This document shows positions 12,815 to 19,798 of a stretch of 19,893 nucleotides of DNA, piece by piece (positions within the stretch are counted from its first letter, which is position 1; every line of letters begins with the position of its first letter). Origin of the DNA: Hormoscilla sp. (GTDB lineage: Bacteria; Cyanobacteriota; Cyanobacteriia; Cyanobacteriales; Desertifilaceae); assembly GCA_051439505.1 (NCBI GenBank), contig JBFRWI010000109.1, positions 1 through 19,893 on the forward strand, in the 5' to 3' direction. A program made the position numbers and the translations under genes. A model generated the notes under the pieces. The model was not told the origin of the DNA and searched no databases. It was given only the letters and a program-made list of their open reading frames with translations.

Positions 12815-13897
12815 TTAGCCATTGATCGCCGGAGCGGTCAAAGCAACAGGAGCAGCTTCACCGGAGGCCAAGTCTAAGGGGAAGTTGTGAGCATTGCGCT
12901 CGTGCATTACTTCCATCCCCAGGTTAGCGCGGTTCAGCACATCTGCCCAAGTACCGATCACGCGACCTTGAGAGTCAATGATGGACTGGTTGAAGTTGAA
13001 ACCGTTCAGGTTGAAGGCCATCGTGCTCACGCCCAAAGCTGTGAACCAGATGCCGATCACCGGCCAGGCACCCAAGAAGAAGTGCAAGGAACGGCTGTTG
13101 TTGAATGAAGCATATTGGAAGATCAAACGACCGAAGTAGCCGTGAGCTGCGACGATGTTGTAGGTTTCTTCTTCTTGACCGAATTTGTAACCGTAGTTTT
13201 GTGATTCTACTTCGGTTGTTTCACGCACCAAGGAAGAAGTTACCAAAGAACCGTGCATGGCGCAGAACAGAGAACCGCCGAACACGCCTGCTACACCCAG
13301 CATGTGGAAGGGGTGCATCAGGATGTTATGCTCTGCTTGGAACACCAACATGAAGTTGAATGTACCAGAGATCCCCAAGGGCATACCATCGGAGAAGGAA
13401 CCTTGGCCGATCGGGTAGATCAAGAACACTGCGGTTGCGGCGCTAACTGGGGCGCTGTAAGCAACACAGATCCAAGGACGCATACCCAAGCGGTAGCTGA
13501 GTTCCCACTGACGACCCATGTAGCAGCAAATGCCAATGAAGAAGTGGAAGATGATCAGCTGGTAAGGGCCACCGTTGTACAGCCACTCATCCAAGGAAGC
13601 TGCTTCCCAGATGGGGTAGAAGTGCAGCCCGATCGCATTTGAGCTGGGCACAACTGCACCAGAGATGATGTTGTTGCCGTACAGCAGAGAACCAGCAACC
13701 GGCTCCCGGATACCATCGATGTCCACGGGAGGAGCAGCGATGAATGCGATGATGTAGCAGGTGGTAGCGGTCAGCAGGGTTGGGATCATCAGGACGCCGA
13801 ACCAGCCCACATACAGGCGGTTGTCGGTGCTGGTCACCCAGTTGCAGAACCGGTCCCAAACGTTAGCGTTTTCACGCTGTTGTAAGGTCGTAGTCAT
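12815..13897 (-). CDS. psbA: Photosystem II D1 protein, copy 1 (standard form, Q130)
   Basis: 360 aa canonical D1; Mn4CaO5 ligand motifs and the HNFPLDLA processing site are intact. Confidence 0.99.
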
Positions 13898-14315: not shown

Positions 14316-14354
14316 GGGAGAGATAAGCTTTTGTTAGTTAAGAGGGTGACAGTG

Positions 14355-14651
14355 ATGTCAGCGTCAGAAGTTGAAAAAGCAGCGAGTCAGACCCGTGATG
14401 TAAAAATCAACATTAGGGCTAAACAAAATCAACGAGATTTAATCGATCGCGCGGCACAAGTCCAGGGGAAAAGTCGCTCGGAATTTATGCTGGAATCAGC
14501 GTACCAAAAAGCCCAAGAAGTTCTTTTATCCGAGTGCTTTTTTGGGGTAGATGAAGTGAAATTTCAGCAATTTGTGGATCGGCTTGATGCCCCCCCAACG
14601 CGAAATGACAAATTACACACCTTGTTAACAACGAAGTCGCCGTGGGATTAA
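14355..14651 (+). CDS. DUF1778 ribbon-helix-helix antitoxin (TacA/AtaR-like)
   Basis: INIRA...RDLIDRAAQVQGKSRSEFMLESA...F...LDAPP...L..LLTTKSPWD; overlaps the toxin start; ATG 14355 preferred to TTG 14331. Confidence 0.9.
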   Translation: MSASEVEKAASQTRDVKINIRAKQNQRDLIDRAAQVQGKSRSEFMLESAYQKAQEVLLSECFFGVDEVKFQQFVDRLDAPPTRNDKLHTLLTTKSPWD

Positions 14652-14836
14652 ATCAAGAGCAAAACAAGCTGAATCCCCCAGAAAAGCTCAATTCATCGCA
14701 TCAAATTGACCAATTTGATTCCGGCAACAGCAAGCTAAATGACTGGCTGAAAAAGCGGGCTTTAAAAAATGAATTAGAGGGTGCTTCACGTACTTATGTT
14801 CTCTGCACGGGCCAAGTAGTTATTGCATATTATTGA
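14642..14836 (+). pseudogene. Truncated GNAT acetyltransferase toxin (TacT/AtaT-like), N-terminal 64 aa only
   Basis: H.IDQFDSG...LNDWLKKRALKNE..GASRTYV...VIAYY then stop; the acetyl-CoA-binding part is missing; the stop coincides with the end of the beta-barrel gene. Confidence 0.88.
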
Positions 14837-15702
14837 GCGTGAGAATTCATCAATTTATCATTAATAGAATAAGAAGGAATAACAGATGTAGTATTCTCAT
14901 CTTCGGGGATTTGGCGTTCCCTGGTAATAATTCCTCGACCTCCGAACTCAATGCTGATTCCTAATCTGGTATCTCCACCCCGCATACTAAGAGTGGTGCG
15001 TAGTCCAATATCTTGATTTCCTCGATCGTCCAAATTGTAACCAGTACGGAAGGACAAAGAAGTGACAGGCAAATTGGTATCGCCGATCGGGATGCTGTAG
15101 TTTGCATACCCACTGAAGCTGACTCTTTCATTGGCGACAAACCCCGCTCCGATGCCAAAATTTAAGCTATGATTATCGGACTCTAACGATTGAGAATATC
15201 CCAGAGAAGCTAAGATGATGACAGGATCTCTGATTAAACTCGCTTGACTTTGAACGGTGATTGTCCAAGGGTATGCAACACCGACGGAAAAACGAGGATC
15301 TATAGTAGAGCCAGGAGAAGGACGGTATTCTAAAGATAAATCAGTGCTAATGTCAGTGTCAGTTTCCGTTCTCGTTTCAGTCCGATCGCCAAAATCTCTT
15401 TTTTCCTTAAAAATGAACAAACTAGGGATGACGCTGGCGGAAATACTTACATAGGGGCTAAAACTGTAGCTTCCTGAACCAGAAAAGTTAATCAATTGAT
15501 TGAAAGTTTCAAAATTAAACGGAGTCCCATCTGGCTCAAAGTCAAATCCTTCTCTTCCATCGGGGATATAATTGATGCTGAAATTATAGATGTAGCTTCC
15601 CGTTTCTTCTTCTGGTAGTCGCAATGGGTCAATGGGAACTTGAGCGACTGCGGGTTGAGAGATTAACAAAGCGATCGGCAGAATCAACAGCCCCTTGTTC
15701 AT
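14830..15702 (-). CDS. Predicted outer-membrane beta-barrel, FapF-like transporter
   Basis: Signal peptide (..SQPAVA|Q); many alternating amphipathic beta-strands; DPVIILASLGY and GAGFVANERVSFS resemble FapF-family motifs as I recall them; ATGA overlap with the C39 gene. Confidence 0.7.
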   Translation of the reverse strand: MNKGLLILPIALLISQPAVAQVPIDPLRLPEEETGSYIYNFSINYIPDGREGFDFEPDGTPFNFETFNQLINFSGSGSYSFSPYVSISASVIPSLFIFKEKRDFGDRTETRTETDTDISTDLSLEYRPSPGSTIDPRFSVGVAYPWTITVQSQASLIRDPVIILASLGYSQSLESDNHSLNFGIGAGFVANERVSFSGYANYSIPIGDTNLPVTSLSFRTGYNLDDRGNQDIGLRTTLSMRGGDTRLGISIEFGGRGIITRERQIPEDENTTSVIPSYSINDKLMNSHAQ

Positions 15703-16346
15703 AATTTCCTTCTCAACGAGTTGAGGGTTACTAAACGGGACTCGGCCCAGCTTAAGGTTTCGTTTTGTTGTTCTTTTACAGTGAAAATTAAGTTTTCCGG
15801 TGGAACGGGTACAAGGGTTACACCACTAAAACCTTGTTCATTGACTAAAGCATCAAGGGGTTGAATGCGTCGTCCCCATGATGGATCGGCTAAAATGATC
15901 CAATCTCCTACCATACCGACAGCTAAAACGTAGTGCATTTGAGGTTTGGTGACGTGCAAAACTACCGGCAGTCCACCGTTACCAAAGTATTCGGCTAAGG
16001 ATGTGAGGGTTAGTCGCATTCCCCTAGCTTGAATGCCGCGATCGTCTAAAGCTTGTATTAATGCTAAAGCGGTGATTCCTGTTTCTTCTAGAATTTTGCT
16101 GCTTTCTGCCATTGCTGTTTCTGACAGTGCTAAAATCTCTGCTTCCGTGGTTGGGCGATCGTAGTAGTGAGTCAGCAAGGTGGCAACAGCCGCAGCACCA
16201 CAAGTGTAATAGGTAGTTTGACCGACGACTCCTTCATAGCGAAGAGTGCGGTAAGGTGTTATTGGATTAGCCAAACTAGGAGCCACTAAAATAAAGAAGT
16301 TAATTATCTGACATAATACACAAAAGTAAAAACAATATTTCAACAT
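15699..16346 (-). CDS. Stand-alone exported C39 cysteine peptidase (FapD/C39G-like)
   Basis: Signal peptide (..APSLA|N); VVGQ43TTYYTC49GAAAVATLL, H138YV and LAD154PSWG catalytic motifs; no ABC transporter domains. Confidence 0.92.
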   Translation of the reverse strand: MLKYCFYFCVLCQIINFFILVAPSLANPITPYRTLRYEGVVGQTTYYTCGAAAVATLLTHYYDRPTTEAEILALSETAMAESSKILEETGITALALIQALDDRGIQARGMRLTLTSLAEYFGNGGLPVVLHVTKPQMHYVLAVGMVGDWIILADPSWGRRIQPLDALVNEQGFSGVTLVPVPPENLIFTVKEQQNETLSWAESRLVTLNSLRRKL

Positions 16347-16375
16347 TTTTAAAATATTGGCGACCTCTTCTCAAT

Positions 16376-16413
16376 AAAAAAGCAATGGGTTGAAAATAGA
16401 CTCTCCAACCCAT
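16376..16413 (-). terminator. Intra-operon terminator/stabilising hairpin between precursor and peptidase genes
   Basis: Minus-strand RNA AUGGGUUGGAGA-gucua-UUUUCAACCCAU (12-bp stem with G-U pairs) followed by UGCUUUUU. Confidence 0.7.
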
Positions 16414-16469
16414 GCAATTTTCAGGTAAATTTCAATCTGGAAAAAAATTGCTTTTTCAGCAAAAGAAAA

Positions 16470-16811
16470 TTACCAACGCTGGCGGGACGAAAATCCTCTT
16501 TGTCGGCCTCCCATGCCTGGGCCTCCCATTTGTTGGCCTCGGGCTTGGCCTCCTTGTTGGCTTCCCATGCCTGGGCCTCCTTGTTGGCCTCCCATGCCTG
16601 GGCCTCCTTGTTGGCCTCCCATGGGTCGGCCTCCCATTGAGCCTTCAATTTCTGCGAGTTCGGCATCGGTCATCATTGCCCCTTCCGGTAGTACAATTTG
16701 ATTTTGTGTCTCCGGTTCAATTTCTGATGATAAAGAATCAGCAAAAGCAGGAGCGATCGCCACATTCGAGAGTAAAACATCTGTACCTGCTGCCATTAAG
16801 AACTTTTTCAT
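16470..16811 (-). CDS. Secreted precursor peptide: Sec signal, acidic double-glycine-type leader and Gly/Gln/Met repeat core
   Basis: MKK...APAFA|D signal; MTDAELAEIEGS leader motif; 55-aa core with MGGQQGGPG repeats; first gene of the C39/beta-barrel unit. Confidence 0.8.
   Translation of the reverse strand: MKKFLMAAGTDVLLSNVAIAPAFADSLSSEIEPETQNQIVLPEGAMMTDAELAEIEGSMGGRPMGGQQGGPGMGGQQGGPGMGSQQGGQARGQQMGGPGMGGRQRGFSSRQRW
16505..16637. repeat. Coding tandem repeat, 27-bp unit GGCCTCCCATGCCTGGGCCTCCTTGTT and variants
   Basis: Near-identical units at 16559-16585 and 16586-16612; degenerate units at 16505, 16535, 16613 and 16628. Confidence 0.9.
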
Positions 16812-16849
16812 TGGAACAACCGTTTAATTTGGGTCTGTCTCTATAAACA

Positions 16850-16888: not shown

Positions 16889-16980
16889 GTAGGATTTAGG
16901 ACATAAATTTCCGAAAAAGTTAAAAACTCATTTAGTAGGATTTAGTAGGATCTGGTTTACAAAGTAGGATTTGGTAGGAT
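16889..16980. promoter_or_regulatory. Five GTAGGAT direct-repeat boxes in the divergent intergenic region
   Basis: GTAGGAT at 16889, 16935, 16945, 16964 and 16974; two pairs have exact 10-bp spacing. Confidence 0.7.
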
Positions 16981-17020: not shown

Positions 17021-18493
17021 ATGAAGCATATCGAAGAAGTGTTAGAGTGGGCTGAAAATGTAATCGTTGACCAAACCGGCGAACCTATCACACCGATAGA
17101 GGAAGCGATCCTCAAGGGTGTTTGGCAGCGACAAACCTATCCGCAAATCGCTGAAACTTTGAATTGCAGTCCATCTCACGTTAAGAAAGAAGCCGCGAAG
17201 TTATGGGATAAGCTGCGGGATGAGTTAGGAGAAGACCTGAATAAATATAATTTTCGTTCCAAGGTGGAAAAAAAACATAGAGTTTCTCAATCTTCACAAG
17301 CCAACCACTGTCTACAAGTTAATACTGTTAACCAAGTTGATACGCTTAACATTGATAGTAAATTAATACAAAGTATAAAAACTCCCAAAACCAGATCGCC
17401 CTCTGAGTCCTCTTCTCCCTCTTCAACCTCCACCGAAAATCGATCGCCCATCATTGACTTAACCGACGCACCAGAACTCACCGACTTTTACGATCGCACC
17501 ACCGAACTATCCACCCTGAAACAATGGATATTAAAAGACCATACCCGGTTAATCACCATCTACGGCTTCAGTGAAATTGGCAAAAGTACACTTACCCTCA
17601 AACTCATCGAACAAATCCATAATCAATTTGACTATATTATTTGGCGAAGCCCGAGCAATGTTCCCACATTGTCCGTTCTGAAAACAGAACTAAAAGAATT
17701 TTTTGCCCAGTCGCAACCGAACCCATTACCGACAGTTCTGGATTATTTTCGCTCCTCGCGCTGTTTAGTCATCCTCGATGATTTGCAGACTATTTTTCAA
17801 AGCGGTCAACTCGCCGGTGAATACTTAACAGGATATAAAGAATATGGCAAATTCTTGAAACAAATTGCCAGAAACCATCATCAGAGTTGTGTGATTCTCC
17901 TCAGTTGGGAAAAATCCAGAGAACTCGCTACCTTAGAAGGGAAAAACAGACCTGCCCGAACCTTACATCTGAAAGGATTAGAATCCGGGGCTGAGGAAAT
18001 TTTGCGAGAATACGGATTAACCGATGAAGAACGATGGCCGGAGTTAATTAACCTCTATCAAGGTCATCCGACCTGGTTAAATATTATCGCTTCAACTATC
18101 GTGGAACTATTTGACGGTAAGGTTTCTCTATTTTTAGGCGATTCCCCCCAACCCGATGGCGGGCCAATAAAAATTGATTCCTTTGATTCCCCCCTAGCCC
18201 CCCCAACTCCCCAAACCTGGGGGGAGTCAGCGGAGATATTTTTAGGGGACTTAGAACCGATTCTAGAATCTCAGTTAGAACGATTATCAGAATTAGAACA
18301 ACAGGTAATTTCCTGTTTCCGAGAAAATGAGGCGATCGCCCTTTCCCAACAACCGGCGAATTGTGAATTATCCCAATCGGAATTATGGTCAGCCATGCAA
18401 TCTTTAGTCAGACGAGGGCTAGTCGAAAAAATCTCAGAGGGAGGGCGAGGAATGTTTCTTCTCAATCCAATTTGGCAACAGTATATTAAATAG
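17021..18493 (+). CDS. N-terminal wHTH plus NB-ARC (STAND) ATPase, putative transcriptional regulator, no WD40/TPR tail
   Basis: EEAILKGVWQRQTYPQIAE...LWDKL HTH; FYDRTTEL..LKQWI, Walker A GFSEIGKST, IIWRS, Walker B LVILDD, YQGHP, RLSELE, SLVRRGLVEK. Confidence 0.85.
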   Translation: MKHIEEVLEWAENVIVDQTGEPITPIEEAILKGVWQRQTYPQIAETLNCSPSHVKKEAAKLWDKLRDELGEDLNKYNFRSKVEKKHRVSQSSQANHCLQVNTVNQVDTLNIDSKLIQSIKTPKTRSPSESSSPSSTSTENRSPIIDLTDAPELTDFYDRTTELSTLKQWILKDHTRLITIYGFSEIGKSTLTLKLIEQIHNQFDYIIWRSPSNVPTLSVLKTELKEFFAQSQPNPLPTVLDYFRSSRCLVILDDLQTIFQSGQLAGEYLTGYKEYGKFLKQIARNHHQSCVILLSWEKSRELATLEGKNRPARTLHLKGLESGAEEILREYGLTDEERWPELINLYQGHPTWLNIIASTIVELFDGKVSLFLGDSPQPDGGPIKIDSFDSPLAPPTPQTWGESAEIFLGDLEPILESQLERLSELEQQVISCFRENEAIALSQQPANCELSQSELWSAMQSLVRRGLVEKISEGGRGMFLLNPIWQQYIK

Positions 18494-18715: not shown

Positions 18716-19798
18716 TTAGCCATTGATTTGGGGAGCGGTCAAAGCCACGGGGGCAGCTTCACCGGAGGCCAAGTCTAAGGGGAAGTTGTGAGCATTGCGC
18801 TCGTGCATTACTTCCATCCCCAGGTTAGCGCGGTTCAGCACGTCTGCCCAAGTACCGATCACGCGACCTTGAGAGTCGATGATGGACTGGTTGAAGTTGA
18901 AACCGTTCAGGTTGAAGGCCATCGTGCTCACGCCCAGGGCGGTGAACCAGATACCGATCACCGGCCAGGCACCCAATAAGAAGTGCAAGGAACGGCTGTT
19001 GTTGAAAGAAGCGTATTGTAATATCAAACGACCGAAGTAGCCGTGAGCTGCGACGATGTTGTAGGTTTCTTCTTCTTGACCGAATTTGTAACCGTAGTTT
19101 TGTGATTCCACTTCGGTTGTTTCACGCACCAGAGAAGAAGTCACCAAAGAACCGTGCATCGCGCAGAACAGAGAACCACCGAAGACACCGGCAACACCCA
19201 GCATGTGGAAGGGGTGCATCAGGATGTTATGCTCAGCTTGGAACACCAACATGAAGTTGAATGTACCAGAGATACCCAAGGGCATACCATCGGAGAAGGA
19301 ACCTTGCCCGATCGGGTAGATCAGGAACACTGCTGTTGCGGCGCTTACTGGTGCGCTATATGCAACACAGATCCAAGGACGCATACCCAGACGGTAGGAC
19401 AGTTCCCACTGACGACCCATGTAGCAGCAGATGCCGATGAAGAAGTGGAAGATGATCAGCTGGTAAGGACCACCGTTGTACAGCCACTCATCCAAGGAAG
19501 CTGCTTCCCAGATGGGGTAGAAGTGCAGACCGATCGCATTTGAGCTAGGCACAACTGCACCGGAGATGATGTTGTTGCCGTACAGCAGAGAACCAGCAAC
19601 CGGTTCCCGGATACCATCGATGTCCACGGGAGGAGCAGCGATGAAAGCGATGATGAAGCAGGTGGTAGCAGTTAAGAGGGTGGGGATCATCAGAGTACCG
19701 AACCAACCGACATAAATGCGGTTGTTGGTGCTGGTTACCCACTGACAAAACTGTTCCCACAAGGAAACGCCAGAGCGTTGTTGTAAGGTGGTAGTCAT
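18716..19798 (-). CDS. psbA: Photosystem II D1 protein, copy 2 (Q130; distinct N-terminus; L260 and L274)
   Basis: 360 aa D1 with intact water-oxidation ligand motifs. Confidence 0.99.

Follow-up and report, generated by a model that had tools for sequence, protein, structure and literature searches.

Two described systems come closest to the locus reported here: the Fap machinery of Pseudomonas, with its peptidase FapD and its barrel FapF, and the nap island of Neisseria. The target of FapD and the signal by which it is recognized have been described as unknown (PMC5557850, PMC6173800), with FapF itself proposed as the target (PMC5557850), and pairs of fapD and fapF have been noted in five further phyla with their cargo unnamed (PMC6173800); these pairs may include cassettes of the kind described below. 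The Nap peptides are cationic and are reported to promote autolysis without having antibacterial activity (PMC11798529). Double-glycine leaders follow a rule that places Gly, Ala or Ser at position -1 (PMC6363468), and the C39 peptidases treated in PMC3482391 concern toxin domains, which belong to another system. A literature search whose scope took in a minority of subscription papers found no description of the present cargo family.

Here, we describe a cassette from Hormoscilla sp. with the gene order precursor, C39 peptidase, barrel. The window, by which we mean the whole 19,893-nt stretch of DNA analysed, carries it on the minus strand, and strains were compared through contigs of four (X1, X2, X5 and X7) of 20 sequencing runs. 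The features are as follows:

14830..15702, minus strand: outer-membrane beta-barrel of 290 aa with 12 complete strands and a predicted FapF-like fold (AF2 and Foldseek)
15699..16346, minus strand: stand-alone C39 cysteine peptidase of 215 aa with a hydrophobic N-terminus (Pfam PF03412, E 1.8e-13)
16272..16640, minus strand: exchangeable segment made up of core, intergenic DNA and peptidase N-terminal signal (comparison with the X5 contig)
16385..16413, minus strand: terminator-like hairpin of 12 pairs between precursor and peptidase (consensus scan)
16470..16811, minus strand: precursor gene (113-aa ORF; the plus-strand frame is interrupted by stops)
16740..16811, minus strand: Sec-type signal peptide, residues 1-24, with an AFA end and Asp11 within the h-region (pattern and homolog conservation)
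16638..16739, minus strand: acidic pro-region closing with a C39-type leader helix, residues 47-58, nt 16673-16638 (leader-position conservation and complex model)
16470..16637, minus strand: 55-aa Gly/Gln/Met (G/Q/M) repeat core with a basic-aromatic end, stop codon included (composition and repeat analysis)
16889..16979, plus strand: five GTAGGA direct repeats, a candidate operator in the divergent promoter region (repeat count)
17021..18493, plus strand: divergent HTH and NB-ARC/AAA ATPase of 490 aa, a candidate regulator (domain matches)

The initial annotation had read the precursor as a Sec signal, an acidic spacer and a low-complexity core, and this division holds. Minus-strand translation returns the 113-aa product; the signal at residues 1-24 agrees with the expected pattern and is conserved among homologs, so that the protein is presumably exported; residues 25-58 contain nine D/E and no K/R, and MTDAELAEIEGS occupies residues 47-58, as claimed. 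An acidic residue in the h-region, as at Asp11, occurs in the first 24 residues of two of 47 close relatives, namely the window copy and a row whose start is shifted, and the Ala11-coding base at 16780 is read in all depth in X2, X5 and X7, and not in X1. Searches of the precursor against Pfam and NCBIfam gave no matches, and its best score in the ESM Atlas, 0.79, lies below the useful range. That the precursor is no chance reading frame is indicated by a strict leader pattern, matched by it and by nothing else among the 77,594 six-frame ORFs of the genome, and by a leader profile built from homologs with the window sequence left out, which gave E 1.4e-9 for this precursor against 0.87 for the next match; among the same ORFs neither search found a second precursor. 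The leader-core junction is spanned by a contig of run X2, which comes from the same study as run X1.

Conservation across homologous precursors bears out the stacking of a C39-type leader behind a Sec signal. The initial annotation had staked this reading on retention of the leader motif in homologs, and in 50 distinct precursors (one fragment and one spurious second match having been dropped) Gly stands at -2 in all 50, Leu at -7 in 48, Glu at -8 in 43, and L, M, I or V at -12 in all 50. Gly57 (codon 16643-16641) is this invariant -2 Gly, and M47, E51, L52, I55 and G57 of the window leader fit the hydrophobic -12, -7 and -4, the Glu at -8 and the Gly at -2 of the double-glycine rule (PMC6363468). 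The residue at -1 is Glu in 39 of the 50 distinct precursors and in 43 of 47 close relatives; Ser occurs there in three of the 50, and the window precursor has Ser58. A Gly-Ser cleavage site, as first proposed, is therefore not the family form, which is Gly-Glu, and Ser58 itself sits inside the segment that strains swap. Since Glu lies outside the Gly, Ala or Ser expected at -1, the exact position of the cut is uncertain.

A complex model of peptidase residues 26-215 with precursor residues 33-70 scored 0.76, the best control reaching 0.02, with contact agreement of at least 84% and partner pLDDT of at least 64 across runs; the mark used for this score is attained, roughly and with an own alignment, by 116 of 157 solved pairs, and by 2 of 215 that were mismatched. 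The modelled interface places peptidase residues 46-50 and 136-139, which include Cys49 and His138, against precursor residues 52-60, with Leu52 and Ile55 docking. Because C39-leader complexes have already been solved (6MPZ is the top match of the peptidase profile), the model may score through likeness, and it shows likeness rather than binding. Conservation and the complex model favour the predicted cleavage by the adjoining peptidase, and loss of the acidic leader would then release a cationic peptide, as had been suggested, the core having a net charge of +6 (family median +4).

The peptidase carries the Gln/Cys/His/Asp set of an active C39 enzyme: Gln43, Cys49, His138 and Asp154 are invariant in all 45 homologs aligned (of 66 matches), their spacings equal those of LahT Gln21/Cys27 and His101/Asp117 (PMC6363468), and PF03412 is above its cut-off, all of which points to a functional peptidase. 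It falls short of the FapD equivalog NF058616 (45.5 bits, cut-off 330) and of TIGR03796 (41.5 bits against 853). The 123 nt between precursor and peptidase contain no gene; the hairpin located there is supported only by its position, as the scan found three such sites against 2.8 in shuffles.

The barrel gene overlaps the peptidase gene by 4 nt. Its AF2 model, made from a 33-sequence alignment, has a mean pLDDT of 85 and 12 complete strands, and in Foldseek FapF chains took ranks 1-9 (best E 5.4e-10, TM 0.59, 14% identity). In VIA, FapF came fourth (Z 20.9, rmsd 2.3, 208 aligned) behind the porins KdgM (Z 22.0), NanC (21.7) and GalP (21.0), so the predicted fold is FapF-like, though not exclusively. 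None of 33 family barrels matched the FapF HMM, and the barrel sequence had no match in the PDB. A C-terminal extension is absent from the window barrel, from two of 12 cyanobacterial homologs and from all 20 other homologs aligned. In ten of the 12 cyanobacterial barrels (L001-L004, L006, L008, L011, L012, L014 and L054) we noted, by eye and through weak coil-family matches, a C-terminal coiled-coil-like segment, at the end opposite to the coiled coil of FapF. Truncation of the window barrel as an artefact or damage was rejected: all 12 strands are present, X5 and X7 contigs cross the junction without a gap, and other homologs also lack the extension. The missing extension is not linked to the odd core.

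The cassette belongs to a wider family. A profile search of genome contigs gave 126 confirmed stretches, the best 80 of which yielded 79 loci that were kept, 60 of them belonging to the family and 19 being proteobacterial and FapD-like; five of these 19 were scanned and had FapD/FilB as top matches, below cut-off. The family loci come from Cyanobacteria, Deinococcota, Bipolaricaulota, Thermotogota and Bacillota, with single Chloroflexota and archaeal MAG records. A quick, midpoint-rooted tree covered 97 C39 domains, after removal of four duplicate loci and of identical rows and short matches, and named its groups after the origin of the loci; it carries a long-branch warning. In this tree 63 family rows lie on one side of a branch with SH-aLRT 97 and 19 FapD-like rows on another (91), both separate from 15 transporter-type or partial rows (93). 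Among related genomes, a strong ortholog was found in two of the 60 searched and in none of the four of the genus, 15 others giving weak matches only.

Together with seven metagenome loci the 60 family loci make a set of 67, in which a barrel follows 3' of the peptidase in 58; all nine misses have less than 900 nt of downstream DNA, at contig ends, and these counts rest on a hand-picked alignment rather than on an iterative profile, which was contaminated by overlapping frames. The profile found a precursor in 45 of the 67 (20 of 21 cyanobacterial, 25 of 46 other) and none in the remaining 22, where some divergent ones are visible by eye. The gap between precursor and peptidase measures 115-294 nt in 19 of 20 cyanobacterial loci, and an immunity-like membrane ORF occurs in this gap in none of the 20, nor at the window locus; outside cyanobacteria the gap is 317-1882 nt in 25 of 25 loci, and in 12 of them a strict filter finds a membrane ORF within it. 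Tandem triple precursors occur in two of these 25, and Bipolaricaulota-type loci (L046, L049, L064) have several tandem precursor genes with small membrane ORFs in between. In Bacillota/Limnochordales loci (L017, L024, L029, L036, L041, L043) peptidase and barrel are present and no precursor was found directly upstream; their cargo may be encoded elsewhere or be disrupted. Separately, secreted neighbours of FapD-like peptidases (L060, L068, L073, L077) show a leader-like motif with a Leu-Arg/His-Gly end soon after the signal, which a strict pattern finds in four of the 19 FapD-like loci, with more by eye, and nowhere in the genome background.

Behind this conserved leader the cores are hypervariable across three core sets, as the initial annotation had wished to see compared. 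In the 50-precursor set they are Gly/Ala-rich and hydrophobic, with a median GRAVY of 0.37 and, the window core set aside, 31-60% AVILFW residues. Among 1.84 billion representatives at 50% identity, 124 matched the leader profile, and 114 of these were scored after removal of three long proteins, six cores shorter than 10 aa and one without a leader match; of 49 close relatives 47 were scored, 44 with at least two Cys in the core. Several relatives' cores end in FGRGG-type tails, and cyanobacterial cores look modular, a shared N-terminal module being joined to different cationic tails and the reverse (P0195-P0228), which recalls the uptake domains of microcins. We infer a polymorphic bacteriocin-like system, a reading favoured by the hydrophobic cores, the Cys pair, the membrane ORFs, the tandem precursors and the patchy spread, and weakly backed by known models, since TIGR03949 (E 0.021) and a Gly-zipper model each matched two of 26 homologous precursors. 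As the cyanobacterial loci have no immunity genes, their cores may act in signalling or on non-self targets.

The window core departs from this pattern. After S58 it has 55 aa with 22 G, 11 Q, 6 M and 6 R and no D, E or C, exactly as first counted. It had also been described as built from MGGQQGGPG repeats: the core is indeed repeat-built, but that unit has only two exact copies, within six Met-started units of 15, 27, 27, 39, 15 and 42 nt, two of them identical and all in frame. TRF finds a period of 27 nt with 5.2 copies and 78% matches. All eight Gly-Gly pairs are written GGA-GGC, against 4.6% in long genome frames, and the GC content is 63% against 43% in the flanks, for which reasons the core looks like a young tandem repeat expansion at the DNA level. 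Compared with 49 other cores it has a GRAVY of -1.24 (others -0.18 to 1.44), 5% AVILFW (31-60%) and 20% Gln (at most 8%); its GRAVY is the lowest in three overlapping sets (49, 113 and 46 other cores), and its best 15-residue hydropathy is -0.67 against a family median of 1.69. It is thus not the hydrophobic Gly/Ala membrane-active core of class II bacteriocins. It has no Asn, Tyr or Cys, one Phe, one Trp, a Pro within each main unit and 47% Pro+Gly, which is the composition of disordered self-assembling elastomers and is described as blocking cross-beta structure (PMC5703643). Its aromatic/basic C-terminus is of the family type, an aromatic residue lying within the last four positions in 15 of 16 cyanobacterial cores. 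A degenerate pattern of the repeats matched nothing in 185,579 genomes. Two other origins of the core were rejected: a frameshift, as the other two frames give other repeats unlike family cores, and capture from elsewhere in the genome, as blastn of the core DNA found no match outside the window and the tblastn matches were low-complexity.

Strains exchange the core at a sharp point. The X5 contig, from a near-identical strain, matches 14378-16271 and 16641-16835, the 369 nt between being replaced by 473, and the break falls on the last base of the Gly57 codon, which assigns Ser58 to the swapped module; X7 and one X1 contig break at 16641/16642. Past the break X1 reads Glu-Trp-Val-Trp, a canonical core, and X7 reads Glu-Met-Ser-Trp-Arg, another polar start (both read by hand, with loose letters assumed to adjoin the junction). 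The window core itself is present in X1 and X2, from one study, X1 possibly being the source run and the X2 copy having Ala11 instead of Asp11. The allele nearest by peptidase N-terminus, P0068/P0003, carries one piece of the leader three times over and has a core of 16 aa.

The HTH-ATPase has a homolog in 16 of 21 cyanobacterial loci and in none of 46 others. GTAGGA occurs five times in 209 nt against a genome rate of 0.32 per kb on both strands, and at least twice in seven of 14 related intergenic regions; upstream of five HTH-ATPase paralogues checked, no such repeats were found. The HTH-ATPase family has 14 matches in the genome, one paralogue being divergent from a short Ala/Gly-rich ORF (G000 C100:32823-33083). 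On the other flank, 14331-14836 (plus strand) encodes a TacA-like antitoxin (PF08681, E 8e-24) and then a 64-aa ORF without a family match, which we take to resemble the start of a GNAT toxin. The end of this ORF overlaps the barrel stop, a junction common to X5 and X7, and the overlap suggests that one deletion clipped both. Two presumed psbA-like copies in direct orientation (12815-13897 and 18716-19798, minus strand) bracket the toxin-antitoxin pair, the cassette and the HTH-ATPase, and psbA also lies beside the HTH-ATPase in L004 and L005; recombination between such copies is a possible route for cassette gain or loss. The two psbA-like copies, as gene content, and the closest homologs mark the host as a cyanobacterium.

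The explanation that we prefer, at a probability of roughly 0.58 for the whole, is that the cassette exports peptides in two steps without an ABC transporter and is related to FapD/FapF and NapP/NapF, that the precursor is its cargo, and that the G/Q/M allele is degenerate. The export mechanism taken by itself is probable: the precursor would cross the inner membrane via Sec and lose residues 1-24, the periplasmic C39 peptidase would bind the leader helix through its hydrophobic -12, -7 and -4 positions and cut at or just after Gly57-x, and the core would exit through the 12-stranded barrel. The family core would be a polymorphic, exchangeable bacteriocin-like module, replaced through recombination in the stretch that separates the leader from the peptidase domain, both of which are conserved, and the window slot would hold an atypical allele from recent tandem expansion of short DNA units. 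Given this mechanism, degeneracy of the G/Q/M allele is somewhat better than an even bet. It is favoured by the lowest GRAVY, the uniform GGA-GGC pairs, an Asp11 private to the window copy and the triplicated leader piece of P0068/P0003, and opposed by the kept repeat frame, the family-like C-terminus and the X2 core behind an intact Ala11 signal. With the hydrophobic helices and the Cys pair lost, neither pore formation nor amyloid is likely for the core; it is most probably a degenerate cargo, low-cost and non-toxic.

Of the alternatives, the best placed, though unlikely, keeps the same export and makes the G/Q/M allele a functional, disordered cationic peptide, elastomer-like or coacervating, that binds acidic sheath polysaccharide as a matrix or adhesive. 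Its Pro+Gly content is that of elastomers (PMC5703643), its positive charge would come into effect once the acidic leader is lost, its repeat frame and C-terminal signature are kept, the X2 allele has an intact signal, no immunity gene would be required, the machinery is of Fap ancestry, and cyanobacteria offer a precedent in the EbfG proteins, GG-leader products that build the matrix of biofilms (PMC4997328, PMC9981879). Against this, the core is a singleton among all cores examined and without a repeat-pattern match in the genomes searched, its Gly-Gly pairs show no synonymous divergence, one Phe and one Trp are its only stickers in a mere 55 aa, and the window copy carries Asp11. A bolder form, which we hold to be slightly less likely again, has the bacteriocin-like slot of a Fap-type machinery turning into a matrix exporter, with an elastomer-like cationic core made by expansion, solubilised by the acidic leader, released by C39 and coacervating with the sheath; if true, it would link bacteriocin and functional-matrix export in one cassette, through a pore that takes any leader-tagged cargo. 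As the purpose of the locus, the amyloid or matrix of the initial annotation finds no support, since the homologous cores are hydrophobic, Gly/Ala-rich and mostly Cys-paired and the G/Q/M core is unique.

A shade more doubtful is a remaining bioactivity of the core, exerted by its Arg-rich aromatic tail; the core would then be a cationic peptide that acts against microbes, enters cells, signals or, like the Naps, promotes autolysis. Its charge is near the family median, its C-terminus is of the conserved type, with relatives that bear FGRGG-type tails, and cationic Naps promote autolysis without antibacterial activity (PMC11798529); against these points stand the want of any hydrophobic or amphipathic stretch and of a receptor or two-component gene in the cassette.

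Functional amyloid formation by the released core, as first suggested, is very improbable. Gln/Gly-rich repeats, a FapF-like barrel and a FapD-related peptidase speak for it, as do the amyloids formed by an Acinetobacter microcin (PMC13188072) and by EbfG1-3 (PMC9981879), but Pro+Gly at such a level, with a Pro in each main unit, no Asn or Tyr and few AVILFW residues, argues against cross-beta structure (PMC5703643), and the cassette has no FapA, FapB, FapC or FapE equivalents. The early remark that the core resembles no FapC repeat was apt: the FapC motif is Asn-based (PMC5557850) and the core has no Asn. Least probable of all is an incidental leader likeness, with the precursor secreted uncut and the peptidase directed at some other protein or at the barrel: for FapD, FapF itself has been proposed as the target (PMC5557850), and Glu at -1 is non-canonical, but conservation stops at the invariant Gly across five phyla, where the exchange point also lies, and the complex model scored well above its controls.

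On the preferred reading, the cassette is a minimal FapD-type version in which peptidase, pore and cargo each occur once. Because core exchange between strains sets in precisely at the end of the conserved leader, FapD-type recognition becomes directly testable, Glu at -1 included. The family points to more than 100 unannotated bacteriocin-like peptides in cyanobacteria, Thermus and other diderms, which would escape mining based on ABC transporters. It also points to a secretion route that works by leader tag and tolerates widely differing cargo. The G/Q/M allele is a natural test of this tolerance; it is not good evidence of a new amyloid.

Compared with known systems, the cassette shares its presumed Sec export, a presumably periplasmic C39 peptidase and a barrel modelled with 12 strands with Pseudomonas Fap as described (PMC5557850, PMC6173800), and its peptidase family adjoins FapD-like proteins in the quick tree. 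Unlike Fap, it consists of three genes with a polymorphic peptide cargo and no amyloid repeat subunits, scores below the FapD cut-off and without a FapF HMM match, and has its coiled-coil-like extension, where present, at the C-terminal rather than the N-terminal end. The nap island, in its published description, likewise pairs a signal-bearing stand-alone C39 (NapP) with a FapF-like channel (NapF) and small cationic peptides, has a variable middle between conserved peptidase and pore, and is proposed to cleave in the periplasm (PMC11798529). In that description NapF and NapP alone are given signal peptides, and a holin is suggested for crossing the inner membrane (PMC11798529), whereas here the cargo itself bears a Sec signal, followed by a well-conserved leader with GE or GS at its end; the phyla and the gene order also differ from the nap island (NapABC, NapI), and the cyanobacterial loci have no immunity gene. 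With double-glycine class II bacteriocins and microcins the family shares the -12/-8/-7/-4/-2 leader helix and hypervariable Gly/Ala-rich cores (PMC6363468) and, outside cyanobacteria, immunity-like neighbours. It differs from these and from the cyanobacterial clusters in an internal leader behind a Sec signal, a -1 residue that is mostly Glu and, in the window, a polar core. Cyanobacterial groups I-VII are described with an ABC-fused C39, HlyD and an N-terminal leader (PMC3140520), the cassette having a 215-aa stand-alone peptidase, no HlyD and a leader at residues 47-58. EbfG1-4 of Synechococcus elongatus are also cyanobacterial GG-leader proteins, with a matrix role, but are secreted with the peptidase transporter PteB, and are likened here by description, not by sequence (PMC4997328, PMC9981879). 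The cassette is accordingly a member neither of Fap nor of the transporter-based cyanobacterial bacteriocin groups; what it adds is a clade outside the Proteobacteria whose polymorphic cargo is of the GE type, a point of core exchange located at the leader Gly, and a single aberrant allele.
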